Shown: piece by piece, positions 12,752 to 35,519 of the stretch
How the letters are laid out: each line of letters starts with the position of its first letter
Position numbering within the stretch: the stretch's first letter is position 1
Origin: Candidatus Falkowbacteria bacterium
GTDB lineage: Bacteria; Patescibacteriota; Patescibacteriia; UBA11705; JABHMO01
Direction: 5' to 3'
DNA length: 64,000 bases
NCBI GenBank assembly: GCA_018674305.1
Contig: JABHAL010000004.1
Span: 128,446 to 192,445 of the forward strand
The notes under the pieces: generated by a model
The model's database searches: none
What the model was told of the DNA's origin: nothing
The model's input: the letters and a program-made list of their open reading frames with translations, nothing else
Program-made: the position numbers and the translations under genes

Positions 12752-12772
12752 AAATATAATTTTTACCTTATG

Positions 12773-13639
12773 TTAGCAATTTTCAAGATATTTAACGATT
12801 TGCTCAGCAACATTAATTTTGGTAATCTTGGTAAAACGTTTAAATTTAGGTGAACGATTTACTTCCAAAAGTTTCAAGTCATCACCATCTTTTATTATAT
12901 CAACTCCAGCAATATCTGTATTCGTTGCTTTAGCTGCTTTCAGTGCTAATATCTTCAGGTCCTTGGTCAATTCTGCAAAAACTGATCGTTTGGCCAACGG
13001 AATGTTTTTTCTTTCCAAATTGAAATAACTCATTCTTTTCATTGCGCCTAAAACTTCATTACCAACCACAACCACGCGATAGTAAAAATTACTGTTTAGT
13101 CTTTTCTGAATTAGAAATTGTTTAACTTTATTTTTTCTTTTCTGAAAAAACTGCTCTAAGCCTTTTTTTGTTTTGAATGAATAAATATTACGGCTTTGCA
13201 TACCAGCAATATCCTTGATGACAACCGGTCTAGGGATTTTAGCCATATAGCGAGATAATTCCTCATAAGTCGAAAAGTGAAATGTATCAATACAAGGTAA
13301 TCCCTTCTGAAAAAACTCAAAAGACATAAACATTTTATCAAACTCATAAGCCTTATTATACAACTCCCGATCAATCACTTCTGTGCCAGAAAATTTCAGA
13401 AAGCGTGCCAAGGTTTTAGCTTTAGCAAAGTGTGGTGAAATCCCTCGGAACAAACAAACACCAAAACCATCCAGTTTTTTACCGCGCCAATATGCTTCCA
13501 TTTTATTACCTCTTACTAATAAGGATATTTTACTCAGAGAAGTATGTACCACATGGTGATGACGCTTTTTCGCCTCTTGAGCAATGCTGATATTTTCTTT
13601 TGACTTCGGTCCAATTATTAATAACTTCATAATAAACAA
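12773..13639 (-). CDS. RimK-family ATP-grasp ligase paralog B (alpha-L-glutamate-ligase-like)
   Basis: Collinear with E. coli RimK: YRVVVVGNEVLGAMKRM ~ IRCLVVGDEVVAAIERR; IAGVDIIKDGDDLKLLEVNRSP ~ [22 protein letters not shown]. Confidence 0.7.
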   Translation of the reverse strand: MFIMKLLIIGPKSKENISIAQEAKKRHHHVVHTSLSKISLLVRGNKMEAYWRGKKLDGFGVCLFRGISPHFAKAKTLARFLKFSGTEVIDRELYNKAYEFDKMFMSFEFFQKGLPCIDTFHFSTYEELSRYMAKIPRPVVIKDIAGMQSRNIYSFKTKKGLEQFFQKRKNKVKQFLIQKRLNSNFYYRVVVVGNEVLGAMKRMSYFNLERKNIPLAKRSVFAELTKDLKILALKAAKATNTDIAGVDIIKDGDDLKLLEVNRSPKFKRFTKITKINVAEQIVKYLENC

Positions 13640-13677
13640 AAATAAACTTTATAAATTTTTTCCTTCACGAACCTTTA

Positions 13678-15078
13678 TTACCCTTTTGTTGGATCAATTA
13701 AAAACTTGCGTAAATCTCGCCTTCCTATTATAACAGGATATTTCATATTCTCCCTCATGATAACAGAGGCATTCGAGTTAATTGACGTTCCTGCTAATTC
13801 TATTTTCAAAGGGATTTCCATTCGATAAGATGCGCCATGACTACTATAAGTTTTGGCAACCGCTACAATGTCTTCATGCTTTTCCAATTCTTTCCAAACT
13901 TTACGACTGCTCAAATCATCCAATTCCTGTTTTGTTAATACTCGTTTAATATCAAAAGTTTGATAATACTCAATAGCTTCACCATATCCCAACTGACGAG
14001 AGAAATTTTCATCTATAGAAGTAATTCCTGCTCCGGTATCCAACTTCGCTGAACACTCAATCCACTCGCCTTTTTTATTCTTTATTTTTATATCATTTAT
14101 TATACCTAAAATTTTCTTTCCTGTAATGCCTTCCACCTCATCTTCAATTTCACCACCAAACAATTCTTTAGCAACTTTGATCCCCTTGCTTACTGTTTTG
14201 ATTTTTAAACCTTCAACGCGGAGTAACCGATCTTTGAGTGATGCCAAATTAGCAATTTGAATTGACAGACCTGGGTGCGCATTTAATTCTAGAATAATAG
14301 GGCCCTTTTCTCTGTCAATGGCAATATCTACACCTGAATACCCCAATCCACAAACCATTGCAGCCTTGACTGACAATGCTAAAATTTCATCCCAATAAGG
14401 AATTTTTATTCCTCTCAAGGGTATTTTAATATCTGGCAAAGTCTCAATTAACCTGTCCGACTGGATAGCATTGGTGGTTACTCCAGTAGAAATATCAATT
14501 CCTACACAAATTCCACCTTGATGAAGATTGGCTTTGCCACGAGACGCCTTGGTCGGAAGTCTAAGCATCGCCATAACCGGAACTTTATTATAAATAATCA
14601 CTCTCACATCTGGAACCCCCTTATAACTATATAATTTAAATGCTGGATGAATTTTTAACCGCTCTTCAAAAAAAGCGGTGTCTGGTACATTAGTCTTAGA
14701 ATAATTACCGTCCAAAATGTTAGAAACTCTTGAAACAATATCTCGCAGACTAGCATCCTTATTGTTTGGCAAAACCCAATTACCATTTTTCTTTTTCCCA
14801 AAAGTTACTACTATCCCTTCACCACCTAATCCTCTATTGGGCTTCAAAACAAAACTTTTTGGTAGACTTGTCCAGTCAAACTTATAAAACTGTTTTCTGT
14901 TTTGTATCTTGGCAATAATTTTACAAACTGGTAATTCATGTTTTTCCAACAACTTTTTGGTCCTTAATTTATCATCAACCAAGGCCACCCGGTTTTTGGT
15001 GGCTGTAGGTCTTATAAATTTCAAATTCCTGGCGTTCATGCCAAGAATTAGTTTACTTTTTTGTAGCCAACTCAACAT
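13678..15078 (-). CDS. RimK-related ATP-grasp ligase fused to a C-terminal retropepsin-like (DTGA) aspartyl-protease-like domain
   Basis: N-terminal ~300 aa carry ATP-grasp motifs (GGEGIVV, ILELNAHPGL); C-terminal ~150 aa carry CSAKLDTGAGITSID (clan AA D-T-G-A). Overlaps the upstream 7TM gene by 26 nt. Confidence 0.65.
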   Translation of the reverse strand: MLSWLQKSKLILGMNARNLKFIRPTATKNRVALVDDKLRTKKLLEKHELPVCKIIAKIQNRKQFYKFDWTSLPKSFVLKPNRGLGGEGIVVTFGKKKNGNWVLPNNKDASLRDIVSRVSNILDGNYSKTNVPDTAFFEERLKIHPAFKLYSYKGVPDVRVIIYNKVPVMAMLRLPTKASRGKANLHQGGICVGIDISTGVTTNAIQSDRLIETLPDIKIPLRGIKIPYWDEILALSVKAAMVCGLGYSGVDIAIDREKGPIILELNAHPGLSIQIANLASLKDRLLRVEGLKIKTVSKGIKVAKELFGGEIEDEVEGITGKKILGIINDIKIKNKKGEWIECSAKLDTGAGITSIDENFSRQLGYGEAIEYYQTFDIKRVLTKQELDDLSSRKVWKELEKHEDIVAVAKTYSSHGASYRMEIPLKIELAGTSINSNASVIMRENMKYPVIIGRRDLRKFLIDPTKG

Positions 15079-16606
15079 TTTTTATAACCTTTCTAAAACG
15101 ATAATATTCAGTTAAACGTAAGCCAGTCCATTTTCCAATCAAAACATTCAAAATTATGGTACCTAAAATAAACTCTGGGTAACCAAGAATAAACGTTCTC
15201 ATAAACTGCCAACTGACCAGCCAATAACATATAATTGATAAAAATAAAGTCTCTATAACTAAAACAATTGCGCTTTTGTGACCTCTTTCAATTTGTACTG
15301 AAATAAACTTTTCAGTCAAGAGCACCATCACCAAAATAGGGAATATAGAAATTTCCAAAAGTCCCGTTTTGTTCATCGAGGCACCTAATAAAAACGCCAA
15401 GAAAATCGAAAAACTTACCATAGTCAAAACAATCGCCATTCTCGGTAAGTAAGACAACCGAACTTTGCGTGCCAACAAACGACTCACCGTTCCTACAATT
15501 AGTGTCATTAGAAACAATGCTAAACCATATTTTAAGCCTGTGACCAAAAAAGAAACTGCCACAATAGAAGGCATGTAAATACCCATAGCCTTGACTCCGA
15601 TAATTTGACGAAAAAAAGCAATCACCGTAGCGATGATTGGCAAAACTAAAATTAAATAAATTGTATTCAAGGCTACACCGTTATCAACCATGTAACTAAC
15701 AAAATACGAAACAAAATTTGACCACTTTAAACGATTAACATCCCGCTGAGTATGTAGGCCAACTAGCCGGTAATCAGTTTGTCCATATTTTAATCGATTT
15801 AGAAGGCCAGGAAAATCAGTCGTGGAAAATACTTCATTCATAGCGTCCGCCCGAGTCAAAACAATAAATTGTGGTGAAATTAAATTATAAACGCTCTGTC
15901 CCAAGCGAGCTGTAGCTGAAAAATTTTGATCAGTAATGACCACAAAGTATTTATTTGCAAAACCAAAACTATCTAGGTTACTTCCATTCTCGTCCGATGC
16001 CTTGGTCAAGTCTTGCGCGACTTCCAATAACGCATTAAGCCCAACATTGTTTTTTGTCCAAACTACAATTGAACTAGCTTGTCTGATGTCCTCTTTACTT
16101 TTTAATATTTTTTGAGCTAATTCTTTTTCTGCAATATAATCAACTTCATCTTTGACTTGAAAATCAACAACAAGAGTACCCTGTGCAGAAGCAATCGTTT
16201 GTACCGCTTGTAATTTTTCTGGCTCAAGATTTACGTCACTAATAAGAATCATTACATCCTTATCAACATTAACAATAATCTCATCCACTCCAGTCAATTG
16301 ATCTTCTCCTGCTACTGCCTTGAGCTCCAGCTTGACTCTATAAACACCGGAGTTGTCATAGGTATGTGTGACCTCTTTGCCATTTGCCCAATAACCATCA
16401 CCAAAATCCCAACGATATTCAACTTGGTCTACATTATTAGTAATTGAACCCAAAGCTGAGAAAATAACTTGGTGGTAAACAACTACGTTTCTATCCTGCC
16501 CAGCCACCGCTTTCAACAATGGAGTAGTATCAATTTCGTCTTGTGCCAACGCAAAACCTGGACAAAGTAGAATTGTTAATACCATTAATATAATAATTTT
16601 CTTCAT
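15053..16606 (-). CDS. Signal-peptide / PKD-like extracellular domain / C-terminal 7-TM membrane protein. Candidate '7TM plus inactive transglutaminase-like' partner of RimK-type ligases; that family assignment is recalled from the literature and not verified here.
   Basis: Sec signal MKKIIILMVLTILLCPGFALA; PKD motif YRWDFGDGYWANGKEVTHTYDNSGVYRV; ~290-aa extracellular region followed by seven hydrophobic helices (residues ~300-500). Confidence 0.55.
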   Translation of the reverse strand: MKKIIILMVLTILLCPGFALAQDEIDTTPLLKAVAGQDRNVVVYHQVIFSALGSITNNVDQVEYRWDFGDGYWANGKEVTHTYDNSGVYRVKLELKAVAGEDQLTGVDEIIVNVDKDVMILISDVNLEPEKLQAVQTIASAQGTLVVDFQVKDEVDYIAEKELAQKILKSKEDIRQASSIVVWTKNNVGLNALLEVAQDLTKASDENGSNLDSFGFANKYFVVITDQNFSATARLGQSVYNLISPQFIVLTRADAMNEVFSTTDFPGLLNRLKYGQTDYRLVGLHTQRDVNRLKWSNFVSYFVSYMVDNGVALNTIYLILVLPIIATVIAFFRQIIGVKAMGIYMPSIVAVSFLVTGLKYGLALFLMTLIVGTVSRLLARKVRLSYLPRMAIVLTMVSFSIFLAFLLGASMNKTGLLEISIFPILVMVLLTEKFISVQIERGHKSAIVLVIETLFLSIICYWLVSWQFMRTFILGYPEFILGTIILNVLIGKWTGLRLTEYYRFRKVIKNVELATKK

Positions 16607-19784: not shown

Positions 19785-19826
19785 AAAAAAGCTGCCCTTT
19801 CCCATGCTTGGAGGGCAGCTTTTTTA
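19785..19826. terminator. Bidirectional intrinsic terminator between the PGI/PMI gene and the pilin-like array
   Basis: GCTGCCCT-tcccatgcttgg-AGGGCAGC followed by TTTTTT, with an A-run upstream. Confidence 0.7.
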
Positions 19827-19837: not shown

Positions 19838-20242
19838 TTAATTTGCGACTGTAGTAGCTGACGACAAATTGGTCACTACAAAACTGGAGATTGCGTAAGC
19901 AGATAAGACCAACGCTAAACCAATAATAGCATTAATCAACCACTGTTTAGCTTTTTTCACTTGATCTTCATTTCCACCAGCGGTCATCCATAGAAATCCA
20001 GCATAAACAATAATCACTAGAACAATCACTCCAAGTAAGGTCAAAACGATCTTAACAATGTTACCGATTATACCAACCAAGTCTGTTCCGTCTTTGTCTT
20101 GACCAAAGTCTTTAGCAAAAAACTCCATATTTCCTTCAGCATCCATAGGAGTTAAGCCTTGATCTAATATGTCTTGAGCTCCAATAGCTCCTGGTAATAG
20201 CAATAAAGATAATATTGCTAAAATTGGCATTACTTTTTTCAT
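19838..20242 (-). CDS. Secreted two-helix membrane protein, VirB2/TrbC-pilin-like topology, paralog 1 of 9
   Basis: Sec signal (AIGA|QD); variable ~40-aa region; conserved core IVKIVLTLLGVIVLVIIVYAGFLWMTAGGNEDQVKKAKQWLINAIIGLALVLSAYAI. Confidence 0.5.
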   Translation of the reverse strand: MKKVMPILAILSLLLLPGAIGAQDILDQGLTPMDAEGNMEFFAKDFGQDKDGTDLVGIIGNIVKIVLTLLGVIVLVIIVYAGFLWMTAGGNEDQVKKAKQWLINAIIGLALVLSAYAISSFVVTNLSSATTVAN

Positions 20243-20274
20243 AAGTTTTCTATATTTAATTATTTATTATCTTA

Positions 20275-20661
20275 TTATTTAGTTGTTGCTGATGCAAGAT
20301 TTTGCACTACGAAACTGGAGATTGCATAAGCTGCTAAAATCAAGGCCAGGCCTATTACCGCATTTATTAACCATTGTTTCGATTTTTTTACTTGGTCCTC
20401 ATTACCGCCGGCCGTCATCCAGAGAAAACCTGCGTAAATGATTATTACTAGCACTACGACTCCCAGTAATGTTAGCACAATTTTGACGACATTACCAACA
20501 ATCTCAACTAAGTTTTTATCACTACTTGCATACCCCGCTTGAGTTTGAAAGTCGGTTAAACCCTTTGCTGTAGTTTTAGTTAAATCAACATCCATTGCCA
20601 TAGTCATTGTTGGCATAACCAATAAAGAACATAGCGTTAATATCACAAACAATTTTTTCAT
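20275..20661 (-). CDS. Pilin-like paralog 2 of 9
   Basis: Signal peptide plus core YAGFLWMTAGGNEDQVKKSKQWLINAVIGLALILAAYAI. Confidence 0.5.
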   Translation of the reverse strand: MKKLFVILTLCSLLVMPTMTMAMDVDLTKTTAKGLTDFQTQAGYASSDKNLVEIVGNVVKIVLTLLGVVVLVIIIYAGFLWMTAGGNEDQVKKSKQWLINAVIGLALILAAYAISSFVVQNLASATTK

Positions 20662-20687
20662 ACTAATTTTAATTATTTAAAATCTCC

Positions 20688-21065
20688 TTAAGTTGTAGTC
20701 GCTGCGAATAGATAACTAACTGCGAAATCAGCAATTGCATAGGCTGCTAAAATTAACGCCAGACCAATTACTGCATTTTTTAACCACTGTTTAGCTTTTT
20801 TCACTTGATCTTCATTTCCACCAGCACTCATCCACAAAAATCCAGCATAAACAATAATTACAACAGTTATTATGCCGACCAATGTTAATACTATCTTGAT
20901 GATATTACCAACGATATCTACTAAAGTTCCCTTACCTGTATATCCAGTTTTGTCTTTGAATGTTTCCATTTCCTTGACAGGATCACCACCAATTGTTGCT
21001 GCTGTAGCTACCAGGGGCATAGCAAACAGAGAACACAAAGTTAAAATTACAATTAAATTTTTCAT
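20688..21065 (-). CDS. Pilin-like paralog 3 of 9
   Basis: Signal peptide plus YAGFLWMSAGGNEDQVKKAKQWLKNAVIGLALILAAYAI. Confidence 0.5.
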   Translation of the reverse strand: MKNLIVILTLCSLFAMPLVATAATIGGDPVKEMETFKDKTGYTGKGTLVDIVGNIIKIVLTLVGIITVVIIVYAGFLWMSAGGNEDQVKKAKQWLKNAVIGLALILAAYAIADFAVSYLFAATTT

Positions 21066-21081
21066 ATTGATTTGATTTATT

Positions 21082-21489
21082 TTAGGTGGTTGTTGCTGTA
21101 ACTAAATAATCAACCGCAAAGTAGGCGATCGCATAAGCTGCCAAAGTTATAGCTAAACCAATTACAGCATTAGTCAACATTTGCTTTGCTTTTTTTACCT
21201 GGTCTTCGTTGCCACCTGCGGTCATCCACTGTACACCGCCCCAAACAACTAATATTACCATGATAATACCAAGTAAAGTTAAAATAATTTTAATTATACT
21301 ACCAACAATTGTAGGTAAATCTGCTTTTGGTTTATCTGCACCGTGTAAACCTTTACCTACATTACCCAATTCACCAAGTGGTCCATCCGCAGCCAAAGCA
21401 ATTCCACCACACAGAACAAAACTGAAACAGATTACTAACAAAAATGTTACTACTTTTAATGTAAATGGATTTTGACGTAAAAAATTCAT
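21082..21489 (-). CDS. Pilin-like paralog 4 of 9
   Basis: Signal peptide plus WGGVQWMTAGGNEDQVKKAKQMLTNAVIGLAITLAAYAI. Confidence 0.5.
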   Translation of the reverse strand: MNFLRQNPFTLKVVTFLLVICFSFVLCGGIALAADGPLGELGNVGKGLHGADKPKADLPTIVGSIIKIILTLLGIIMVILVVWGGVQWMTAGGNEDQVKKAKQMLTNAVIGLAITLAAYAIAYFAVDYLVTATTT

Positions 21490-21531
21490 AATTTTTTTGT
21501 ATAGAGTAATAAGTAAAGAGTAACAAGTGAT

Positions 21532-21568
21532 TACCTTTTACTTTTTACCTTTTACTTTTTACTTTATT
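21532..21568. repeat. 14-bp tandem repeat (taccttttactttt) x ~2.6 in the 77-bp gap upstream of paralog 4
   Basis: Read directly: taccttttactttt taccttttactttt tactttatt. Confidence 0.6.
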
Positions 21569-21971
21569 AAACTCCAGCTGCTGTACTAAGCTTCTCCACA
21601 AAATAATAAGCAATTGCATAAGCACCCATAGTTACGGCCATACCTAGCACACCTTCAATCAGCATACTTCGAGCTTTTTTCACCTGATCAGCATTTCCAC
21701 CAGCGGTCATCCAGGTGATTCCACCATAAACAACTATGATCACAAAAATAATTCCTAAAATTGAAGTTACAACTTTCAAAGCTTTACCAATTACACCCGC
21801 TGGATCAGCGGCTGTAGTACTAAATCCGGCGCCAGGCGCAGCAGCATCAAGACCTGCCTTGGCTTTGTCAGTAGCACCACTAGCAAAAACATTATTGGTG
21901 ATTATAGTTAAATTAAAAACCAATAAACTGATAATGATTGAAAATAATACTAATTTTTTAAGCATATTCAA
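21567..21971 (-). CDS. Pilin-like paralog 5 of 9
   Basis: Signal peptide plus YGGITWMTAGGNADQVKKARSMLIEGVLGMAVTMGAYAI. Confidence 0.5.
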   Translation of the reverse strand: MNMLKKLVLFSIIISLLVFNLTIITNNVFASGATDKAKAGLDAAAPGAGFSTTAADPAGVIGKALKVVTSILGIIFVIIVVYGGITWMTAGGNADQVKKARSMLIEGVLGMAVTMGAYAIAYYFVEKLSTAAGV

Positions 21972-21994
21972 TATAAATTAAAACCTCTAATAAA

Positions 21995-22378
21995 CTAAAG
22001 AGTCCCGGAAATCTTAGCAATTACATATGCAGTTAATTGGTATGCCATTAAGGTAACAACTAAACCAATCGCCGCATGGATCAAAGTTTTTCTTGCCTTT
22101 TCTACATTTTGCGGAGTACCTCCAGCGGTCATCCACATAATTCCGCCGTAAACAATCATAATTAGGAAAGCAATACTAACGTAGCCAAAAAAAACTCCAA
22201 TGTACTGACCAATAACCTTTTCAATTGTATTATCAGCTTTAGGCAATAAGCCCGGTTTTTCAGCTGCTCCTTTTAAACCATCCGCAAAATCGCCAGCTAT
22301 AGCTAAATTAGGAATAGCTAAAAAACAAATTCCGATCAATAATATAAAAACAATTAAAAAATATGAGTTTTTTTTCAT
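21995..22378 (-). CDS. Pilin-like paralog 6 of 9
   Basis: Signal peptide plus YGGIMWMTAGGTPQNVEKARKTLIHAAIGLVVTLMAY. Confidence 0.45.
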   Translation of the reverse strand: MKKNSYFLIVFILLIGICFLAIPNLAIAGDFADGLKGAAEKPGLLPKADNTIEKVIGQYIGVFFGYVSIAFLIMIVYGGIMWMTAGGTPQNVEKARKTLIHAAIGLVVTLMAYQLTAYVIAKISGTL

Positions 22379-22472
22379 AGAATCTTATTTCTAAAAAGCT
22401 TTCTTCTCATTAATTAACAATGTGTATTATTAACTAATGAGAAGGGCAGATAAATCTGCCCTTTAAACTTTT

Positions 22473-22877
22473 TTATTCGGTTGTTGCAGTAACTAGATTA
22501 GTGATTACAAAACTGGTAATCGCGTATGCGCTTAGAATAATTGCTACGCCTATTATACCAGAAACAATGTATTTCCTCGCTTCTTGTACTTTCTCATCGC
22601 TACCACCAGCTGTCATATATTTAAAGCCTCCGATCAAAACAATTACGATCGCGATCACACCCAAAAATCCAAGTGCAACTTTAATTATAGCTCCAATAGT
22701 TTCCTTCAAATCTTTATTTCCTAAATTTGTGTTGTCACCAACTGCGCCAATCCCAAATGGGTCTGGTGCTGGATCCTCAAGCGCCACGGCTGGTAAAGCA
22801 AATGTTGCAAGCATGAAAATTACTAGGAAAAGTCCCGCGAACATTTTGATTTTGTTTGTGTCTACGTACATGTGCAT
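22473..22877 (-). CDS. Pilin-like paralog 7 of 9
   Basis: Signal peptide plus IGGFKYMTAGGSDEKVQEARKYIVSGIIGVAIILSAYAI. Confidence 0.45.
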   Translation of the reverse strand: MHMYVDTNKIKMFAGLFLVIFMLATFALPAVALEDPAPDPFGIGAVGDNTNLGNKDLKETIGAIIKVALGFLGVIAIVIVLIGGFKYMTAGGSDEKVQEARKYIVSGIIGVAIILSAYAITSFVITNLVTATTE

Positions 22878-22913
22878 TTTCTTAATTATTAATTTTTTAT
22901 ATATATTAAATTA

Positions 22914-23285
22914 TTAAACTCCGAATTTAGAAATTATTGTACTTACTAGTATATAACTCATAAAAATGATAAATAACCCCAAAGCCGCCCAAATCATTGA
23001 ATGCTCGGCTGTCTTAATTCTTTTTTCATTACCGCCTGAGGTCATCCATATTATACCACTATAGATAAAAATCACCAAAGCAACTGTCCCGATTATCCCC
23101 AATGCCATACCAATAGCTTTTCCAATTAATGCATTAAAATCATCACTTTTAACAATTTCGTCACCAAACGTTGAATTAATCTTACTGGTAGCATCAGAAA
23201 TAGCATCCGCGTGAACAACAGCAATTGACACTACGAAAAAGAAAAAACATGAAAGCAATAAAACACCTACTATTTTTTTATACAT
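22914..23285 (-). CDS. Pilin-like paralog 8 of 9
   Basis: Signal peptide plus YSGIIWMTSGGNEKRIKTAEHSMIWAALGLFIIFMSY. Confidence 0.45.
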   Translation of the reverse strand: MYKKIVGVLLLSCFFFFVVSIAVVHADAISDATSKINSTFGDEIVKSDDFNALIGKAIGMALGIIGTVALVIFIYSGIIWMTSGGNEKRIKTAEHSMIWAALGLFIIFMSYILVSTIISKFGV

Positions 23286-23295
23286 ATTAAATAAT

Positions 23296-23661
23296 TTAGG
23301 AACCTGCTAAAACTTTTAATAAAGTCTTTATAAGAGCCCCTGATAAAAATATTATAACTAGACCAATAAAAGCATTTTTTAACATAGTTGTTGCCTTACC
23401 TATTCTTTCTTTGTTCCCACCAGAGAGCATATACATGATACCGCCAACTACAAAAACCAGAAGAGTAACTGATCCTGAAATTCCCAAAATGATCTGGGCA
23501 ACATTCGCAATAGTTTGTTCTACACTTCCTAGGTTGCATTTATCAACAGGAGCATCTCCTAAACATTCGCCGGGAACAATTGAAGGAAAGGCCAGTGTTG
23601 ATTGTCCAACCAGCAAACCAAAACTAATTAAAATAATTACAAATATAATTTGTTTTTTCAT
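23296..23661 (-). CDS. Pilin-like paralog 9 of 9 (most divergent)
   Basis: Signal peptide plus VGGIMYMLSGGNKERIGKATTMLKNAFIGLVIIFLSG. Confidence 0.4.
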   Translation of the reverse strand: MKKQIIFVIILISFGLLVGQSTLAFPSIVPGECLGDAPVDKCNLGSVEQTIANVAQIILGISGSVTLLVFVVGGIMYMLSGGNKERIGKATTMLKNAFIGLVIIFLSGALIKTLLKVLAGS

Positions 23662-25085
23662 AACTTCTTTTTTATCGAGTAATTTATTTGACTGGCAGCA
23701 TTCTCTATTGCTTCATCAATTTCCAAAGTTCCTTCTAAAATATAGTTTATCATTGAATTAAAAATTCCCTCAGCTGCAATTGGACTTTCTCCCCGATACC
23801 AACTCTTGGCCGTTAATAATTGATCAGCCTTTGCCGATAATAATTCATTTGCTAAATGTTCATTAATCAACTTAGTTGAACGCAAAGCAGTGGTCTGCTG
23901 AGTTTCATTCAAATACTCAACAACATTTTTTTCACTAGTAATAAAATTAACAAAATCCCAAGCATAATCCTTAATCTCAGTTTTCTTAGACACGCCCTGC
24001 ACCCAGTAACTCGCATAATTAACTCTCTGATTATCTCCGACCTGCGGAACTGGTGCAACATTGAAATCCAATTGTGGTGCCTCTGCTCTAATTCGTTCAC
24101 GATGATGCGCATAACCAAATACATATGCTACTTTGCCATCAATAAAGGCATCTATTGAATTAGGCATCTGCTTATTCCAAGTATAAACCTCGTGTAGTGG
24201 TGAAGCAAACTGAGTATAGTATTCAACTGCTCCTATAGCTGGTGGAGCAGACACTCCTGTTACGCCTTCTGGTTTTTCAGTAAACGTAGCCTGACCATAA
24301 GCATTAGTCATTGGAGTTAAATTCTGCATCATTAAAAGTGATAAAATATCAAAGTTTCTTTCTACATTGTCAGCCGTGCCCATCGCAGTTCCAGACAATA
24401 GTATTTGCCCTGAATCTTTACTTATTTGGGTAATTCTCTTCACGTGCTCTTGAAAGTCATTCCAATTACTTGCTGGCTCAACAATCCCGGCATTATTCAA
24501 AATATCTTTATTATAATACATTACCAGAGAATCCATACTCATGGGCAATCCCCAAACCCTCTCTATTTGCTCACTCTTTTTGTTACTTGTATCGTTAACA
24601 ACAACTGTATCTAAAGAAACGGCATCTAAATATTTTTTTCTAACTTCAGCTGGGGTAGGTAATTTTGTTGTTCTAAATTCTACAATTTCTTCTTTTTTGA
24701 TTGAACCTTTAATATATTTAATTGGAGTTACCACTTTGTCTGGTGCTGGCAGTAACTTGGTCATATAGCGCTTTACCCAAGTATTCTGCATGGTAAAAAC
24801 ATCTGGTCCTCGATCTTCCGCCAAAGCCTCTACTAATTCTTGTTCGTACTCATCATATCGAAGCTTGTGATAATCAATCCTTACATTCGGATGTAATTGT
24901 TTGTATGCTGCTATAAGACCCTGTACATCTGCCGAGTTATCCCACAAATTCCACCAAACTAAAGTTTCCTTTTTATAAGCTTTTTGCGCATTTCCATCGC
25001 CCCCTTTGGTACAAGCAGAAACAGAAAAACTCACAGCCACCAACAACAAAATTGATACTATTTTGTATGTTTTTGTTTTTGTCAT
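23658..25085 (-). CDS. ABC-transporter substrate-binding lipoprotein (family 1, sugar/MalE-like). Orphan: no permease or ATPase gene nearby.
   Basis: Signal peptide plus lipobox VSFSVSA|C; ~450-aa periplasmic-binding-protein-like sequence; its stop overlaps the start of paralog 9 (ATGA). Confidence 0.7.
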   Translation of the reverse strand: MTKTKTYKIVSILLLVAVSFSVSACTKGGDGNAQKAYKKETLVWWNLWDNSADVQGLIAAYKQLHPNVRIDYHKLRYDEYEQELVEALAEDRGPDVFTMQNTWVKRYMTKLLPAPDKVVTPIKYIKGSIKKEEIVEFRTTKLPTPAEVRKKYLDAVSLDTVVVNDTSNKKSEQIERVWGLPMSMDSLVMYYNKDILNNAGIVEPASNWNDFQEHVKRITQISKDSGQILLSGTAMGTADNVERNFDILSLLMMQNLTPMTNAYGQATFTEKPEGVTGVSAPPAIGAVEYYTQFASPLHEVYTWNKQMPNSIDAFIDGKVAYVFGYAHHRERIRAEAPQLDFNVAPVPQVGDNQRVNYASYWVQGVSKKTEIKDYAWDFVNFITSEKNVVEYLNETQQTTALRSTKLINEHLANELLSAKADQLLTAKSWYRGESPIAAEGIFNSMINYILEGTLEIDEAIENAASQINYSIKKKL

Positions 25086-25093
25086 ATTTATTT

Positions 25094-25963
25094 TTATATT
25101 TTTAAACTTTTCAAATACTTTCTAAAGTCAGCTCTCAGGTCCGGCCTAGTTAGTGCCAATTCAACGTTCGCACGTAAATAACCAAGCTTTGAACCTGTAT
25201 CATAATAAATACCATCAATCTTCTTGGCATAAATTGGTCGCTTCTTGGATAATTTAAAAATAGCATCAACCAACCACAATTCCCCGCCTTTTCCTAATTT
25301 GGTTTTTTCTAATTCTTCAAAAATATCTGGTGTCAAAACAAAACCACCAAGAGAAGCTAATAATGAAGGTGCCTTTTCTGGTCCTGGTTTTTCTACTATT
25401 GTATTAACTTGTAAAACATCTTTTTCAACTTCCAGCCCATCAATAATGCCATATTTATTTGTGTCCTTTTTGGATACGCCATAGGCAGTCAAAACAGGAT
25501 CTCCATATTTTTCATAAACTTCCGTTAATTGTTTGAGTTGTGGTTTTTTCTTGGTATAAAAAAATTCATCTCCCCACATTACAGCAAACGGCTCATCTCC
25601 AATCAAATGCTTGCAACACAGAACTGGTGTACCATTGCCATATGGACCTTTCTGCCGTATATAAATAAAATTGGCCATGTCCGCAATTTTTTTAATCTCT
25701 TTTCGCATTTCTTCTTTTCCCGCTTTTCTTAGAAAATTCTGCAATTCATAATTGTAACCAAAATGATCTTCCACGGCTCGTTTACCACTACCGGTAACTA
25801 AAATTATTGTTTCAATACCAGACCTTACTGCATCCTCAACCACATACTGAACAATCGGCTTATCAACTACTGGCAACATTTCTTTTGGTTGCGCCTTTGT
25901 AGCTGGCAAAAATCTAGTTCCGTACCCAGCCACTGGAATAATTAATTTTTTGACTTTAACCAT
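25094..25963 (-). CDS. galU: UTP--glucose-1-phosphate uridylyltransferase
   Basis: IIPVAGYGTRFLPATKAQPKEMLPVVDKP is the canonical GalU N-terminus. Confidence 0.85.
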   Translation of the reverse strand: MVKVKKLIIPVAGYGTRFLPATKAQPKEMLPVVDKPIVQYVVEDAVRSGIETIILVTGSGKRAVEDHFGYNYELQNFLRKAGKEEMRKEIKKIADMANFIYIRQKGPYGNGTPVLCCKHLIGDEPFAVMWGDEFFYTKKKPQLKQLTEVYEKYGDPVLTAYGVSKKDTNKYGIIDGLEVEKDVLQVNTIVEKPGPEKAPSLLASLGGFVLTPDIFEELEKTKLGKGGELWLVDAIFKLSKKRPIYAKKIDGIYYDTGSKLGYLRANVELALTRPDLRADFRKYLKSLKI

Positions 25964-25975: not shown

Positions 25976-26227
25976 TTAACCAATTTTTAAAGTGTCTTTC
26001 AATTTCTTTAGTTTTGTAAAATAATGAATAAACAGAATTGCAAAATAAACGTTCACTGCTGCTATCAAGACAAAAAATAGGGCGAACAAAATAAACAAAG
26101 TTTGAGGATAAACCAAAACCAAAACACCCAAGGCAATCCAGATAACAGTTTGCAAAACAAAATACACAATGAACCACATTAATGTATTTCTAGTGTGCTG
26201 ATAAAATTTCTCTAGAAAATGTAACAT
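25976..26227 (-). CDS. Small two-helix membrane protein, hypothetical
   Basis: 83 aa, two long hydrophobic segments; an alternative overlapping frame (25968..26177) is less protein-like. Confidence 0.35.
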   Translation of the reverse strand: MLHFLEKFYQHTRNTLMWFIVYFVLQTVIWIALGVLVLVYPQTLFILFALFFVLIAAVNVYFAILFIHYFTKLKKLKDTLKIG

Positions 26228-26344
26228 AATTTTAAGTTAAATATTAAAAATTTTCGAATTGAATTATTCGAGCTTATATTTTGTCTTGTTTATTATAACA
26301 TTTTTTACAAAATTTAACCAAAATTTAATCAACAGACCTTCCTA

Positions 26345-27195: not shown

Positions 27196-27290
27196 TAAAA
27201 ATATAAAACCGCCTCAACTATGTGATGCGGGTTACCATGATTCATAACAATTTATTTTCTATTCCTATCAATCTCCCCTTAGTCCAAAAG

Positions 27291-27377
27291 CGGAGGGCGT
27301 GAGATTTGAACTCACGGAACCTTTTCAGGCTCAACGCTTTTCGAGAGCGTCCCATTCAACCACTCTGGCAGCCCTCC
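27291..27377 (-). tRNA. tRNA-Ser (anticodon CGA), type II with long variable arm
   Basis: Minus-strand sequence GGAGGGCTGCCAGAGTGGTTGAATGGGACGCTCTCGAAAAGCGTTGAGCCTGAAAAGGTTCCGTGAGTTCAAATCTCACGCCCTCCG; anticodon loop CTCGAAA; CCA not encoded. Confidence 0.8.
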
Positions 27378-27456: not shown

Positions 27457-28860
27457 CTAAATTTTACAAAATTCAATTTTTGTTTTGCTACGAGAAACCA
27501 GCCAACCAACTGCAAACAAGAGCCACCAAAAAACACTTAAATCATTTTTAAAATACGGCACGTCAACCAAACCATGAACTAGAATTGCAACCATGACTGC
27601 AATTAGAACTAAGTATATTTTCTGATTTTCTCTATTTTTAACCTTCCAATAATTCATCAAAAATTTCATTCCCAAAACCAACACCACCAACATGCCAAAC
27701 AAACCTATCTCACTCCAGAAGTTTAAAATAATATTATGTGGATACATATAGATCTCAGTTGGCTGCCAAGCTTGCTTTTTGAATTCTTCATTATACAAAA
27801 CCTTTCTTAGCCACTCAGGATCTTGTTTATCTTCAATCCAAATCCCCTCTGCGTGATAAGGTTCGATAGTAGTTTGATAGCCAGCTAATCCTGCACCAAA
27901 AACTTCTCTCCCGTCCGTTAACATAGTCCACGTTTCTTTCCATTGCTGAACGCGAATTTGACCTGAATGATCAGACAGAGAAATTTTATCAACAGCGTAA
28001 GTTCGTGCTTGAGGAATAAAAGAGACGAGCAAGACGAGCGAAACAAGCGAAACGAGCGAAATAAGTCGCAATCTTTTATTTGGGTAAAATAATCCTAGAA
28101 AAATAACTGCTGCCAAGATTCCGAACAACGCTCCTTCGGAGCGAGCGAAGATAATCGCGGATAATGGCACTAAAACACAAAAGCACGAAAGCACAAAAAC
28201 CCAACTGTACAGACGCGATTTATCGCGTCTCCCTTTTCCAAAAAAAACAATAATCAAACCTAAAAACAAAATAACAATCGGAGCTAAATACAAACCAACC
28301 GCATTTGGAAATCCATACCACGAAACAACTCGACGCGTAGCTTCAGCTGCCCAGAATGAGTTTTCAATTCCAATTGGCCAGAACTTCTGAATAATTGCCG
28401 GGATAGCAACCACCAAAGCGGAAGCACCAAGAGCCCCAGTAATTAATGAAACCAACTTTACCCCTGACTTTAGTCGGGGAATATTTATTAATACTACAAA
28501 AAATAAAATTGGTTCGATAAAATAAGCTTTCCAAATTCCAAGCGCTACCGTTCTATCTGGTGAAACAAAAACACTAACTGTCGCAAAAAACAAAAATATC
28601 AAAATCCACCACTTGTAATTACTTAAAGTTACGGATTTGTAATATTTGTAAAAATTTGCAGCATTTGTAACTTTCTTAATCAACCAAACAACAAACAGTA
28701 ACAAAATCATCACTTCCAGCAAAGTCATTGGTAAACCAAAAACCGAAAATCGAATCAAATATGTTGGTAAACAAAATATAACGAAGGCCACTGCCCAGTC
28801 AATTCGTTTCCATGCCAATATGGCAAATAACACACAATAAATTGTCAGCAAATAAATCAT
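27457..28860 (-). CDS. O-antigen ligase / Wzy-like polytopic membrane protein
   Basis: 467 aa, ~12 TM helices with a large external loop; sits beside GT4 and flippase genes; contains an internal GC-rich short tandem repeat (28015-28065). Confidence 0.55.
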   Translation of the reverse strand: MIYLLTIYCVLFAILAWKRIDWAVAFVIFCLPTYLIRFSVFGLPMTLLEVMILLLFVVWLIKKVTNAANFYKYYKSVTLSNYKWWILIFLFFATVSVFVSPDRTVALGIWKAYFIEPILFFVVLINIPRLKSGVKLVSLITGALGASALVVAIPAIIQKFWPIGIENSFWAAEATRRVVSWYGFPNAVGLYLAPIVILFLGLIIVFFGKGRRDKSRLYSWVFVLSCFCVLVPLSAIIFARSEGALFGILAAVIFLGLFYPNKRLRLISLVSLVSLVLLVSFIPQARTYAVDKISLSDHSGQIRVQQWKETWTMLTDGREVFGAGLAGYQTTIEPYHAEGIWIEDKQDPEWLRKVLYNEEFKKQAWQPTEIYMYPHNIILNFWSEIGLFGMLVVLVLGMKFLMNYWKVKNRENQKIYLVLIAVMVAILVHGLVDVPYFKNDLSVFWWLLFAVGWLVSRSKTKIEFCKI

Positions 28861-28870
28861 ATATTTATAA

Positions 28871-30022
28871 TTAACTCAACAAAACCTTTTTGTATTCATC
28901 TAACATTTCACTGAGTAAAAACTTACTTTTTACCTTGCGTAGCCCTGCCTCTACAAATTGCTGAGCGATATCCTTTTCTTTATACAACAACAAAATTGCT
29001 TTGGCTAATGCCTGAGGACTACCGACTTCAACCAAGATGCCGTTTTTACCATGTTCTACAACTTCCGGAATACCACCGGTCAAAGTTGAAATCACAGGTT
29101 TTGAACAGGCCATTGCTTGGATTAAAGTAATTCCCAATGACTCCTTGAGCGACGGTAAAACAAAAACATCAAAATCATAAATCCAATCCAAAAAATTATC
29201 TTTGTACCCAACTAATTTAACTTTATTTCCCATCCTGAACGTTTCAGTTAGCCATTGTAAATTTTTTCTTTGTGGTCCTTCCCCAACAATTATTAAATCT
29301 ATGTTTGGAATTTTATCTTTTAAAATATCAACAGCTTTAATCAAATATTCCAACCCCTTTATTTCATCTAGTCTTGCCACGCAACCAACTGTAAAATTTC
29401 TTTTTTCATAGTTTACAGATCTTTTCTCGGCCATCATTTCAAACAAATCCTCTTGCTTTTTGAATATTGTTGGCTCTACTCCATGACGAATAACAATTAC
29501 ATCTTTTACTCCCAAATTTTCTAATTCTTGTTTAACGAAATGGGAAATTGCCACAACATCAACTTTTGAGCTCCACCACTTATATAAAAAGCGATATATG
29601 TTATTGCTTAATGTCGGATCTATTGACAAAGCTTCTGGCCATATAACTTTATAACCCAAAAGTAATGCCACTGGTGTCATAATTAATTTATCAGTTAATC
29701 CCAGGCAATATAGTTTTTCAATTTTAAATTTATATCGACAATACACCAATCCGATCAACGAACTCAAAACTAATAATGGCCAACTAAATAAAAAAGTAAC
29801 TTTTGAACCACGAGTTTCTGGTGCTAAACCTAGCCACCATCGTTGATTTGGCCAACCTTGTTTTTTGAACTCACTAAGCATCACAGGACAAGAGGCCAAC
29901 AAAAAAAAGCGCACCCCTTTGCCCTCTAAATTTTTCACTAAACTAAATGTATGCTTTTCCACTCCGCTCAAACTGGCCTTAAATGGAAACTTAGTTATCA
30001 GAATTCTAGTTTCTGGTATCAT
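28871..30022 (-). CDS. Glycosyltransferase family 4 (GT-B, group 1)
   Basis: C-terminal LPSLKESLGITLIQAMACSKPVISTLTGGIPEVVEHGKNG (EX7E-like GT4 motif region). Confidence 0.8.
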   Translation of the reverse strand: MIPETRILITKFPFKASLSGVEKHTFSLVKNLEGKGVRFFLLASCPVMLSEFKKQGWPNQRWWLGLAPETRGSKVTFLFSWPLLVLSSLIGLVYCRYKFKIEKLYCLGLTDKLIMTPVALLLGYKVIWPEALSIDPTLSNNIYRFLYKWWSSKVDVVAISHFVKQELENLGVKDVIVIRHGVEPTIFKKQEDLFEMMAEKRSVNYEKRNFTVGCVARLDEIKGLEYLIKAVDILKDKIPNIDLIIVGEGPQRKNLQWLTETFRMGNKVKLVGYKDNFLDWIYDFDVFVLPSLKESLGITLIQAMACSKPVISTLTGGIPEVVEHGKNGILVEVGSPQALAKAILLLYKEKDIAQQFVEAGLRKVKSKFLLSEMLDEYKKVLLS

Positions 30023-30023
30023 A

Positions 30024-31442
30024 TTATTTCAGTTTTACAAATTCCTGAATCGTTTCTTTTCTGATCCCGCCAAACAAATACAAAAACCCGAAGTAAACCA
30101 CTCCGGCAATCATTAACAAAATAAGAACATGCCAACTTCTCACAGAATACAAAACTCCAGACATAATTATAGCTGCTGGGATTGTCTTTAGAAATGTTTT
30201 TAGACTTGGGAAAAATTTTATTGCTCTATAGATAAGAACTGCGGTCCATATCATTATCAATGCTTCACTAAAAACGGTCATCCAGGCTGCACCCCAATAT
30301 CCATACTTTGGAATGAAAATAAAATAACCAACCAACGTCAATACTGCCACAGTTAAATATCCCCACATCATTGTTTTTTGTCGATTTACTGCTACTACCG
30401 CATAAGCAAATAAACTTGTCGCAAAAATTGCACATGACGCAAGGATCAAAACTTTCAAAATTTCACCTGATGGTATAAACTCCGCTCCGGCAATGAAAAT
30501 CATTATTTTTTCAGCAATCACAAAAGTTCCTATCGTTATTGGTACCGCAAAAATCATTAATGCGTCAAATGATTTCTGCAAAATCGCACGTAATTCTTTT
30601 TTATTCTTTTCTAAATAATATTTTGTGGCAATTGGTAAAACAATCCCCATAAATACAGCGGGGAGCATTGTCAAAATATCCACCACGCGATAGGTTGCGC
30701 CATACAAACCTACTTCCCCCTGACTTCTGAATAAAGATAATATAATAATATCCATTTTTAAATAAATCAGATTAAAAGAAATTGATAATGCAATCGGCCA
30801 AGTTTTACTGATCAATTCTTTCCAGATGGTAAAATCAAATTCCAGTCTCCATTTAATATATTTTTTCGAATACAAAAATACAATTACCAAATTAACAATA
30901 CTTCCAATTGACATTGCCCCAAATATCCAATAAATGTTCTTTCCTAACCAGGCAGCAAGAACAACTAAAGCAACAAAAACAACTCGACCAATAACTTCCG
31001 CTAATGTTAATTTGAACATTTTTAGTTTTTGCTGAAAGACTCCCGTTAAGGTTTGGATTATTGTAATACAAAAAAACGAAGCCACCGTTATAATTACGCC
31101 AAGCTTTATAAAAATATTATACGGGAAAAACCAAATTAAAATGGGCGCTAAAAGTAAAAAACAAAAAGCAGTAATAACTCTGAATGAAATAATGGAATTC
31201 ATAGTCCGGCTAATATTTACTCCGGGCTTAGAAATCATTTGTACTGTTGTTAATGTTAATCCGAAATCAACTAAAATTCCAAAAAACTGTAAAAATGCAG
31301 TTACCGTAATATAATAACCAAAACCTTCTTGCCCTAGATATCTCGCCATTACAGCTATAGCAACCAATCCTAAAATTAGGCTGATTAATTTACCAGCCAA
31401 GTGAATAACTGTATTTTTTGCAATTTGTTTATCAAGACTCAT
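30024..31442 (-). CDS. Polysaccharide biosynthesis / oligosaccharide flippase (Wzx/MOP superfamily)
   Basis: 472 aa, ~12-14 TM helices; N-terminal KNTVIHLAGKLISLILGL motif region typical of MOP flippases. Confidence 0.7.
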   Translation of the reverse strand: MSLDKQIAKNTVIHLAGKLISLILGLVAIAVMARYLGQEGFGYYITVTAFLQFFGILVDFGLTLTTVQMISKPGVNISRTMNSIISFRVITAFCFLLLAPILIWFFPYNIFIKLGVIITVASFFCITIIQTLTGVFQQKLKMFKLTLAEVIGRVVFVALVVLAAWLGKNIYWIFGAMSIGSIVNLVIVFLYSKKYIKWRLEFDFTIWKELISKTWPIALSISFNLIYLKMDIIILSLFRSQGEVGLYGATYRVVDILTMLPAVFMGIVLPIATKYYLEKNKKELRAILQKSFDALMIFAVPITIGTFVIAEKIMIFIAGAEFIPSGEILKVLILASCAIFATSLFAYAVVAVNRQKTMMWGYLTVAVLTLVGYFIFIPKYGYWGAAWMTVFSEALIMIWTAVLIYRAIKFFPSLKTFLKTIPAAIIMSGVLYSVRSWHVLILLMIAGVVYFGFLYLFGGIRKETIQEFVKLK

Positions 31443-31701: not shown

Positions 31702-32601
31702 ATGGCTAGAAAGAAGAGAGGTCGAGGTTTGTTTCGTAAAATTTGGGACAACATTATCAACGGCATCTTTGGCGAGGAAAACGTCAATGAGGCCACACTG
31801 GAAGAAGATTCCAGGGAAATGCTCGTTCAACTGGAAGCTAACCGAAGCTCAGTTTCCCAGACAATGGCTCTGTCTCTAGAGACTAGGGCTCGACTGGAAA
31901 CTGACGTTGCTCAGCTGGACGAACTCAAGAAGGCCATTAAGGTCTTTTTAGGTGCTGGCAAAACTACAGAGGCACAGCGACTTGCCCAGCAAGTTCTTAG
32001 CTTGCAAGGTAAGCTCGCGACGACTGCGACGCTGTATGAGAGCCAAAAGTCGGCAGCTGACAATGCTATTGTCACCTTCCGGACCAATGAGCAACAGGTA
32101 AAAACACGCTTGGAGAAACTGGAAAACCTCAAAGCTCTCCAGCAGATCAACAAGATCCGAGAACAAGTTCAAGCGGAACTGGTTGGCTTTAACATTGATG
32201 GCGCAGCACAGAGGTTTGACCAAATCGCTGGCAAAATCGAGCGTAAAGCTCTTCAGCTGACAGCTGGAGATGCTCTTGCTGATGTATCTGGCCAGCGGGC
32301 TGATCTTTCAATCAACAAACAGCTGGAAACTCAGAAAGTAGCTGGACTATTAGAAGGATTCAAGGCTGAGATGGCTTTGAGTGCTGCTACCGGTGAAACG
32401 CAAGTGATCGAAGGGCCTGCGAGCAAAGCGACTATGCTTCTGTCCTCGCCAGCTTTCGACTCCCTGGCTTTGGGTGATTTGACCCCGGCAAATGAACCAG
32501 AAACAATAGTTGCTCAAGCAGTTGAAGTTGAGGTGGTAGACACCAAGGCTGCTGATATTGATTCAACTATTGAAAATGCGGGTGAAAATACCCAAGAGTA
32601 A
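31702..32601 (+). CDS. pspA: PspA/IM30 (Vipp1) family membrane-stress protein
   Basis: Strong RBS AAAGGAGGAAcccaATG; coiled-coil protein collinear with PspA (ILG.F..L...IN.....ED.....L....E....V.....A.); GC ~48-50%. Confidence 0.7.
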   Translation: MARKKRGRGLFRKIWDNIINGIFGEENVNEATLEEDSREMLVQLEANRSSVSQTMALSLETRARLETDVAQLDELKKAIKVFLGAGKTTEAQRLAQQVLSLQGKLATTATLYESQKSAADNAIVTFRTNEQQVKTRLEKLENLKALQQINKIREQVQAELVGFNIDGAAQRFDQIAGKIERKALQLTAGDALADVSGQRADLSINKQLETQKVAGLLEGFKAEMALSAATGETQVIEGPASKATMLLSSPAFDSLALGDLTPANEPETIVAQAVEVEVVDTKAADIDSTIENAGENTQE

Positions 32602-32621
32602 AACCAAAGGGAGGCGTTGAT

Positions 32622-33377: not shown

Positions 33378-33445
33378 ATTACTGCTATTAATTTATAGTG
33401 GTCGTTTCTTTGTAGAGCCCATTCACTCAAATAGGGAGGAAAAAC

Positions 33446-35485: not shown

Positions 35486-35519
35486 TAGTAAGTACTACTA
35501 ATTACTAAGTAAAACCACA

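Follow-up and report, generated by a model that had tools for sequence, protein, structure and literature searches.

Tandem arrays of genes encoding VirB2-like pilins are already known from Patescibacteria. In a search of 3,035 genomes of this group with the Pfam models PF18895 and PF04956 (Quinonero-Coronel et al. 2025, PMC12102498), 441 arrays of 2–11 pilins with a mean identity of 25% were found in 383 assemblies; only 1135 of 1948 assemblies had pilins close to virB4, with separation of the two in about 40%, and adaptation to different hosts was proposed as the role of the arrays. Six PF18895 pilins, SEML1_0014–0019, located inside Southlakia epibionticum's type IV secretion system (T4SS) cluster, are essential by transposon insertion sequencing (Wang et al. 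2023, PMC10633639), and a 2025 review presents pilin arrays as a unique feature of the monoderm T4SS (PMC12857230). The present work concerns nine such genes in a stretch of 64,000 nucleotides, referred to below as the window, from a Candidatus Falkowbacteria bacterium (contig JABHAL010000004.1, positions 128,446 to 192,445). They form the distal part of a conserved operon with the order (small membrane protein)–galU–solute-binding lipoprotein–pilins, and are specialised paralogues in a set order rather than interchangeable variants. The best overall explanation, to which we assign a probability of roughly 0.6, is that this PF18895 pilin array supplies specialised subunits from which a VirB4-type T4SS builds one heteromeric filament.

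The published definition of an array is two or more PF18895/PF04956 pilins in a Patescibacteria genome that are in tandem or have a single non-pilin gene between them, and the nine genes of the window, all annotated by NCBI as "hypothetical protein", are a further example of the published VirB2-like pilin arrays; the preliminary description of this DNA had treated them as unexplained. The array shares with those of PMC12102498, of S. epibionticum and of Nanosynbacter lyticus TM7x (a "Sec-secreted array") the PF18895 family, the protein size, the tandem, co-oriented and divergent copies (nine here versus 2–11), the chromosomal location near the origin and the lack of a relaxase gene. In Southlakia, however, the T4SS cluster encloses the six pilin genes, which are divergent from a VirB6-like gene and not accompanied by a gene for a solute-binding protein (SBP), whereas the present genes belong to a galU–SBP operon. 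PMC12102498 highlights Microgenomatia and Saccharimonadia, while the present array comes from class ABY1, in which an excerpt of Table S1 of that paper places the Falkowbacteria. The highest identity between paralogues is 63%, compared with 54% reported for the published arrays. The pairing of an SBP with pilins, the conserved order of subtypes, and purifying selection with 1:1 orthologues appear to go beyond the published papers; the main text of PMC12102498 mentions no solute-binding protein, galU, positional subtypes or internal hairpin, and the SBP–pilin link was found neither there nor in full-text literature searches.

The genes are consecutive on the minus strand, occupy exactly the positions given for them in the preliminary description (19838–23661), and encode proteins of 121–135 amino acids (aa). 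They are numbered here in transcription order, from p1 to p9, opposite to the earlier numbering:

23296–23661, minus strand: pilin p1, PF18895 40.8 bits; Cys-pair subtype, with the segment PGECLGDAPVDKCNLG before the first transmembrane helix, as read from the sequence; its start overlaps the SBP stop (ATGA)
22914–23285, minus strand: pilin p2, PF18895 34.2 bits; conserved type-2 subunit, with the motif IWMTSGGN...SMIWAALGLFIIF.SY
22473–22877, minus strand: pilin p3, PF18895 37.8 bits; the most conserved subunit, with DPFG...DLKETIG...LIGGFKYMTAGGS; last gene ahead of the internal hairpins
21995–22378, minus strand: pilin p4, PF18895 36.7 bits
21567–21971, minus strand: pilin p5, PF18895 23.4 bits, below the cut-off of 26.6; TTG start (an ATG two codons downstream would yield 132 aa, which is the length of the JGI call)
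21082–21489, minus strand: pilin p6, PF18895 35.5 bits
20688–21065, minus strand: pilin p7, PF18895 43.2 bits; distal, lineage-specific duplicate group
20275–20661, minus strand: pilin p8, PF18895 42.9 bits; distal duplicate group
19838–20242, minus strand: pilin p9, PF18895 46.8 bits, TrbC 25.2 bits; last gene, distal duplicate group

Eight of the nine proteins exceed the gathering cut-off of PF18895 (T4SS_pilin, a model of 71 positions; cut-off 26.6 bits), with 34.2–46.8 bits over model positions of about 2–71. Despite its sub-threshold score, p5 matches the family hidden Markov model (HMM) built here at E 1e-34; this HMM recognises exactly these nine open reading frames (ORFs) in the window and no other (E 1e-31 to 1e-42). 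The PF18895 architecture, in which a signal peptide is followed by two hydrophobic helices with a short loop of polar and basic character between them, fits all nine proteins. The HMM search against PF04956 proposed in the preliminary description gave a sub-threshold match in all nine, covering the same region, the above-threshold assignment of eight of them being to PF18895 instead. Among NCBIfam models the best match is NF045849, a pilin-like protein of Mycoplasma integrative and conjugative elements (ICEs), with 22–39 bits in eight copies and 11 bits in p5.

The resemblance to genuine VirB2 was assessed with eight annotated VirB2/TrbC proteins from MPF_T-typed plasmids, each encoded directly upstream of virB3 and seven of them also downstream of a gene for a VirB1-type lytic transglycosylase. 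In hhalign, an alignment of 59 family members matched these references with a probability of 62% (below the usual 90% confidence level) and an E-value of 7.5e-5 over 64 columns covering both helices; reversed, helix-swapped and 20 column-shuffled controls gave at most 1.5%, and the similarity is therefore specific, though remote. Thus the array proteins are PF18895 members that appear to be remotely but specifically related to VirB2/TrbC, and the pilin-like identity first suggested for them is upheld. Their topology and charge are compatible with a VirB2-like hairpin, and they share with VirB2/TrbC (PF04956, e.g., Agrobacterium VirB2) the signal peptide, the short exposed N-terminus, the two helices and the short polar loop. 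The array proteins differ in a loop extended by about 7 residues, which bears the signature WMTAGGNxxxVxKA, and in a longer mature N-terminal segment (24–42 aa); virB1 and virB3 do not flank the array, which occurs in a monoderm host and has nine paralogues in place of one gene. A sequence search of the PDB with the pilin profile gave only a chance match (E 1.1). With p9 as the query, tblastn found no match at E up to 1 in 72,556 plasmids, so no plasmid-borne close relatives were found.

The family is large, with 83,641 clusters (at 50% identity) matching at E up to 1e-3. Many of the relatives are single polypeptides composed of 2–17 tandem hairpin units with one signal peptide and no internal ones, for example P0362 with six units in 552 aa and P0367 with 17 stretches in 1775 aa (others are found among P0361–P0367 and P0369). 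Such fusions suggest that the units sit side by side in one assembly.

All nine proteins have the same layout: a signal peptide, an acidic or neutral variable segment of 24–42 aa, a transmembrane helix (about 22 aa), a short loop whose net charge is 0 to +3 and which bears the signature mentioned above, and a second hydrophobic helix; the C-termini are often rich in Ser/Thr. The signal peptides, reported earlier and recognised again here from the protein sequences, have an n-h-c organisation with small residues at −1/−3, and their cleavage is predicted on the same basis. The AlphaFold2 model of p9 (pLDDT 81) contains helices at residues 4–27, 35–45, 55–86 and 92–131, which make up the helix of the signal peptide, one short helix and an extended helical hairpin. 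Pairwise identity of the nine copies averages 33% overall (range 20–63%), the mean being 41% for the hairpin core and 16% for the variable segment. The latter, described earlier as hypervariable and about 40 aa long, does not have that length in all copies. Nor can the motif called invariant be upheld, as only G82, M86, G89, G90 and G108 are identical in all nine; its Y is replaced by W, I or V in three copies, its [FGI] position is also occupied by V, and [KT] also by E. The most similar copies lie at the distal end: p7 is 55–61% identical to p6, p8 and p9, p8 and p9 share 63% overall and 85% in the core, and the cores of p7–p9 are 72–85% identical while their N-termini are unrelated. The gaps between genes, given earlier as 10–94 bp, measure 10, 36, 94, 23, 77, 16, 26 and 32 bp in transcription order.

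The specialisation of the paralogues is best seen in comparison with related arrays. In the relative L089 (SBP identity 90%) all nine genes recur in unchanged order, with orthologue identities of 79–92% and dN/dS values of 0.07–0.19 for the pilins (0.04 for galU and 0.09 for the SBP gene); p4 evolves fastest (79% aa identity, dN/dS 0.19). dN amounts to 0.06–0.48 in the variable segment and 0.01–0.10 in the core (0.01 in the core of p3), and dN/dS of the variable segment is below 1 in all eight copies for which it is computable, dS of p9 being saturated. All nine copies are under purifying selection. Across the class, the genes at positions 1, 2 and 3 mostly have p1, p2 and p3, respectively, as their reciprocal best hits. 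For p2 the reciprocal best hit is at position 2 in all eleven related arrays compared (in L004, in which only seven pilins were recognised, at position 3). Orthologues of p3 at position 3 are 48–72% identical across the class, and this third pilin is the most conserved of all, including its N-terminal DPFG motif, while the second is marked by the signature IWMTS...SMIWAALGLF. First-position pilins have at least two Cys residues just before helix 1 in 57 of 60 cases, compared with 18 of 277 at other positions, and this is also the type present where only one pilin follows the SBP gene. By contrast with these three, p7–p9 all map to the terminal gene or genes of the arrays in relatives and are therefore lineage-specific duplicates. 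The gene order is thus Cys-pair pilin, type 2, type 3 followed by a hairpin, and then a lineage-variable distal block, here p4–p9. As a side observation, in the Cys-pair subtype (p1 and the first-position pilins of L009–L088) the stretch of roughly 40 aa preceding helix 1 holds 2–5 Cys residues and has C-x-[NDG]-L or CG-x-Y-x-L-[ND]-[DE] at its end.

Three genes precede the array on the same strand:

25976–26227, minus strand: ORF for a small membrane protein of 83 aa, 12 bp upstream of galU, without an NCBIfam match
25094–25963, minus strand: galU, UTP–glucose-1-phosphate uridylyltransferase (PF00483; TIGR01099)
23658–25085, minus strand: SBP gene, orphan lipoprotein of the CUT1 (oligosaccharide) type, 475 aa (PF01547/PF13416), with the lipobox VSAC and Cys25

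The 83-aa ORF may be the first gene of the operon; the same small gene was called in L001, L002 and L089, a phmmer homologue lies upstream of the SBP gene in 12 of 80 loci, and an extended −10-like sequence, TGTTATAAT, a promoter candidate by consensus match, is found at about 26292–26300. The identity of galU, its distance of 8 bp from the SBP gene, the identity of the SBP and the ATGA overlap of the SBP stop with the p1 start (gap −4) were all correctly given earlier: galU reaches 328.2 bits with the equivalog TIGR01099 (cut-off 326.8), and the SBP 88.6 bits with PF01547 (cut-off 26) besides its match to PF13416. Cys25 is kept in at least 90% of 67 SBP orthologues. In Foldseek, the AlphaFold2 model of the SBP (pLDDT 92.7) has as neighbours proteins binding cellodextrin, sophoro-oligosaccharide and maltodextrin (14–18% identity, E 1e-24), and it shows an extra beta-hairpin at residues 117–141. 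Compared with sugar SBPs of solved structure, this SBP family carries about 45 additional aa; the insertion, modelled as the extra beta-hairpin (window positions of about 24663–24737), is highly conserved (G127, K131, E132) and is a candidate interaction surface. That the SBP has no transporter partner in its vicinity is borne out by the absence of BPD_transp_1 and ABC_tran domains from the window ORFs scanned with Pfam (40 non-pilin ORFs, which account for 37 of the 63 with 110 aa or more, 17 others being mostly nested inside larger genes). Likewise, phmmer with MalF and MalG detected no permease in the window or in 88 loci around related arrays, and ABC-ATPase motifs in the same set were confined to SMC-like ORFs and two small ORFs.

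The pairing of the SBP with pilins extends far beyond the window. A scan of one genome per species identified 303 genomes with an SBP relative, close orthologues occurring throughout ABY1-type lineages, and the best 80 loci were analysed. At least one pilin gene directly follows the SBP gene in 76 of these 80 species loci; three of the remaining four end with the contig and one, L057, is a real absence. Among 57 loci with a complete array, 12 contain a single pilin and 44 contain 4–15 (median 7, range 1–15). galU lies directly upstream of the SBP gene in 54 of 74 loci. A second arrangement consists of ComM or SMC, the SBP, one pilin and a RodZ-like gene, followed by RecA or a methyltransferase, and some loci of this type have a separate six-pilin array 4.5 kb away; the SBP–pilin pair, present in both arrangements, therefore survived rearrangement. 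Two pilins picked independently, from the pilin side, both proved to belong to galU–SBP–six-pilin operons. Synteny is kept across the ABY1 candidate lineages Falkow-, Kuenen-, Uhr- and Buchananbacteria. Taken with the overlaps and short gaps and with a terminator after the last pilin gene, this synteny in dozens of species supports the earlier proposal that galU, the SBP gene and the pilin genes form one operon.

The spacers of the array contain the following elements:

22403–22464, minus strand: pair of neighbouring hairpins in the p3–p4 gap, with a GC stem GGGCAGA/TCTGCCC followed by a 19-bp AT-rich stem
19785–19825, minus strand: strong terminator-like hairpin after p9, AAAAAGCTGCCC...GGGCAGCTTTTTT, identical in L089
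21531–21562, no strand assigned: 14-bp tandem repeat, 2.3 copies, in the p5–p6 gap

The GC hairpin (22441–22464) and the tandem repeat had both been noticed in the preliminary description with their places exchanged: the longest gap (94 bp) holds the hairpin, and the repeat lies in the 77-bp gap. The p3–p4 hairpins are kept in L089 with a compensatory T>C/A>G change. A stable hairpin is present behind pilin 3 in 55% of 49 arrays, behind pilin 4 in 37%, behind other internal positions in 3–16%, and behind the last pilin in 83% of 48 arrays; it is most often the spacer following pilin 3 that is the longest. Probably, the p3–p4 hairpins are an internal attenuator or an RNA-stabilising element splitting the array into two expression blocks. 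It may be added that the hairpin pair after the third pilin is kept across species by means of different sequences (an equivalent spacer occurs in L009–L020). The p5–p6 spacer is unrelated in sequence in L089 and L009, and the 14-bp repeat is a local, non-conserved feature that, for this reason, is probably not functional; it is part of an imperfect AT-rich inverted repeat within that spacer.

According to the explanation favoured here, the pilins would, after cleavage of their signal peptides, be held in the membrane, their two ends facing outwards and the basic loop inwards, from where a VirB4-type T4SS encoded elsewhere would extract them and co-assemble them into a single heteromeric surface filament, presumably exposing the variable N-terminal segments and the Ser/Thr-rich C-termini. 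The hairpin after p3 would set the ratio of the proximal genes (galU, the SBP gene and p1–p3) to the distal ones, and the SBP might work with the filament, e.g., as a receptor for host glycans or as an assembly partner, instead of feeding an ABC importer. By analogy only, the major and minor pilin or pseudopilin sets of type IV pili and type II secretion systems also form an ordered operon of small related subunits, of Sec or prepilin type, with distinct conserved roles; a single disulfide-bearing subunit, and a hairpin after one gene that would tune stoichiometry, can be viewed in the same light. The fold and the assembly are, however, unrelated, and the array lacks class III signal peptides, PilD, PilB and PilC.

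Several observations weigh against a T4SS filament. PF04956 matches the nine proteins with only 13.9–26.2 bits (model positions of about 34–96), below its cut-off of 27.9, and none reaches the 40-bit cut-off of NF045849, the best score being 39.1 bits for p3 and the others 11–37. Fold searches are uninformative, as the hairpin matches thousands of unrelated helical hairpins and cannot be separated from them. A classical VirB2 helical polymer sits awkwardly with covalent fusions that join up to 17 units, and the strict coupling to an SBP is without precedent in T4SS biology. To our knowledge, no pilus has been seen in any ABY1 organism. As noted earlier for the window, the ORFs scanned with Pfam include no VirB4, VirD4 or VirB6 domain, and the pilins are not embedded among virB1, virB3 or virB4 neighbours. 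No T4SS gene was found in the 64-kb window or in the 10 kb beyond either end, the flanks consisting of housekeeping genes only, and a PrgJ-family HMM, used without a positive control, detected no VirB4-like ORF in the window or in the 88 loci, with no T4SS gene within 10 kb of any related array. Nevertheless, a T4SS is likely to be encoded elsewhere in the source genome, because most ABY1 and Falkowbacteria assemblies in an excerpt of Table S1 of PMC12102498 carry VirB4 (23 of 28 and 9 of 11, respectively).

The principal competing explanation, put forward in the preliminary description and also suggested in PMC12102498, regards the copies as equivalent major pilins with diversified exposed N-termini, serving antigenic variation, evasion of phages or of immunity, or the matching of host strains. 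It draws on the contrast between the variable segment and the core, both among paralogues (16% versus 41% identity) and in dN between orthologues, on the lineage-specific duplicates p7–p9 with similar cores and unrelated N-termini, on array sizes that vary between 1 and 15 among species, and on the adaptation to different hosts proposed in PMC12102498. Tandem, divergent, chromosomal virB2 genes with a proposed link to surface variation are also known from the host-dependent Bartonella and Anaplasma phagocytophilum (via PMC12102498), which are, however, diderm Alphaproteobacteria with canonical PF04956 VirB2 proteins and complete virB operons; here, the conserved order of subtypes and the purifying selection argue against a purely variational role. 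At 90% SBP identity no gain, loss or shuffling of genes is seen relative to L089, and the dN/dS values are below 1 even in the variable segments wherever they are computable. Positions 1–3 are occupied by ancient, distinct subtypes whose order is kept across the class, and the N-terminal DPFG of type 3 is itself conserved. The synonymous sites of the paralogues are saturated and their DNA identity is at most 82% over 119 nt, leaving no substrate for cassette exchange or gene conversion; no long identical repeats, inverted repeats or conserved tandem repeats that could serve antigenic variation were found, and no conserved phase-variation element is present. Moreover, the copies are probably expressed together, because they are co-oriented and tightly spaced. 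Purifying selection and gene order thus favour a heteromeric filament of specialised subunits; a variable repertoire is unlikely as an explanation of the whole array, and possible for its distal block only. Recent gene conversion among p7–p9, considered separately, was ruled out because their synonymous sites are saturated.

Two further explanations were considered. The SBP and the two-helix proteins could form a T4SS-independent envelope system, an uptake channel or receptor complex in which "pilin" would denote ancestry, not function. A pair of SBP and first pilin retained in 76 of 80 species and in at least two contexts (galU or ComM/SMC upstream), the ATGA overlap suggestive of translational coupling, the lack of a nearby ABC permease or ATPase partner and of any T4SS gene within 10 kb in every locus (by the VirB4 HMM lacking a positive control), multi-hairpin fusions that resemble a membrane bundle more than filament subunits, and weak sub-threshold Pfam matches to DctQ and TctB, small subunits of SBP-dependent secondary transporters, are all in keeping with such a system. 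Yet the same family is located inside the T4SS cluster of Southlakia and is essential there, its match to genuine VirB2 is specific, the DctQ/TctB scores (15–18 bits versus cut-offs of 28–29) are typical of hydrophobic noise, and VirB4 is present in most ABY1 genomes in the Table S1 excerpt; we consider this system clearly improbable. Hardly any credence can be given to the idea that the genes encode conjugative pilins of an integrated mobile element. VirB2 homologues are classically borne by plasmids or ICEs, and the best NCBIfam model, NF045849, represents Mbov_0395/MMCAP2_0565 of Mycoplasma ICEs, likewise two-helix pilin-like proteins of a monoderm host, but all array scores (11–39 bits) are below its cut-off and the context is not that of an ICE: the neighbours are housekeeping genes, dnaA lies 14 kb away, no relaxase, integrase or coupling protein is present, the GC content equals that of the flanks, synteny spans several candidate lineages, and the plasmid search was negative.

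The Patescibacterial T4SS with its pilin series is essential for epibiotic growth in the one species tested. In the ABY1 arrays, the ordered, conserved subtypes suggest one heteromeric structure and not alternative coats. Throughout the class, the first pilin is genetically tied to an orphan sugar-binding lipoprotein, usually also to galU, and this link, if functional, would connect the recognition of host-surface glycans with the T4SS filament. A bolder and rather doubtful proposal is that the SBP, the Cys-pair pilin and the ordered train of hairpin proteins are a functional unit of their own, either a T4SS filament equipped with a receptor, where the SBP would be a sensor of host glycans or an adhesin, or a T4SS-independent, SBP-dependent envelope channel built from VirB2-derived hairpins. 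In either version it would be a new use of both the SBP and the VirB2 fold, and could bear on the uptake of material by these auxotrophic epibionts from their hosts.

Apart from the operon, the window (about 35% GC, the array having the same GC content as its flanks) contains housekeeping genes of the kind usual in the candidate phyla radiation, among them those for SMC, PBP1, an ATP-grasp cluster, RuvC, YebC, PGI, polysaccharide synthesis, RnpA, DnaA, DnaN and RuvB. rnpA, dnaA and dnaN at 36646–40254 mark the origin region, the cumulative GC skew turning at about 30–34 kb; the array, whose transcription runs away from dnaA, is located at a distance of about 14 kb from that gene, a position that fits the published remark on Patescibacterial T4SS genes near the origin. 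Just upstream of the operon, on the same strand at 27457–31442, there are genes for a Wzy_C protein, a GT4 glycosyltransferase-family protein and a Polysacc_synt flippase, which recur near the arrays of relatives: of the 80 loci, 53 of which extend 6 kb or more upstream, 27 have Wzy_C on that side, and it is also present in L003, L004 and L101. Ser/Thr residues are enriched about 2-fold in the last six positions of the pilins, and six of the nine window copies end in A-T-T-x; O-glycosylation of the pilins, likened to that by PilO/PglL, is a speculative possibility.

The Rfam scan of the window at gathering thresholds returned tRNAs only, and ARAGORN added a tRNA-Ser(cga) at 27290–27377 that is missing from it; two tRNA-Leu(taa) genes, at 40483–40570 and 42036–42120, are 1.5 kb apart. 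Two stretches of markedly higher GC content (0.46–0.50 at 32000–36000 and 0.44 at 48000–50000, versus about 0.35) encode PspA/YqiJ/Band7 (flotillin-like) proteins and a VIT–VWA protein, and could be acquired DNA or compositionally constrained genes. A 121-aa protein encoded at 17146–17511 matches the 23S rRNA intervening-sequence protein family PF05635 (77 bits) and, below threshold, the bAvd-like PF22296, whose members are accessory to diversity-generating retroelements; the window showed no reverse transcriptase. Finally, downstream of the RuvC gene, at 10860–16606, four ATP-grasp (RimK/ATPgrasp_ST) genes accompany a gene for a PKD–7TM "inactive transglutaminase-associated" membrane protein, and this cluster also follows the array in L001 and L002.

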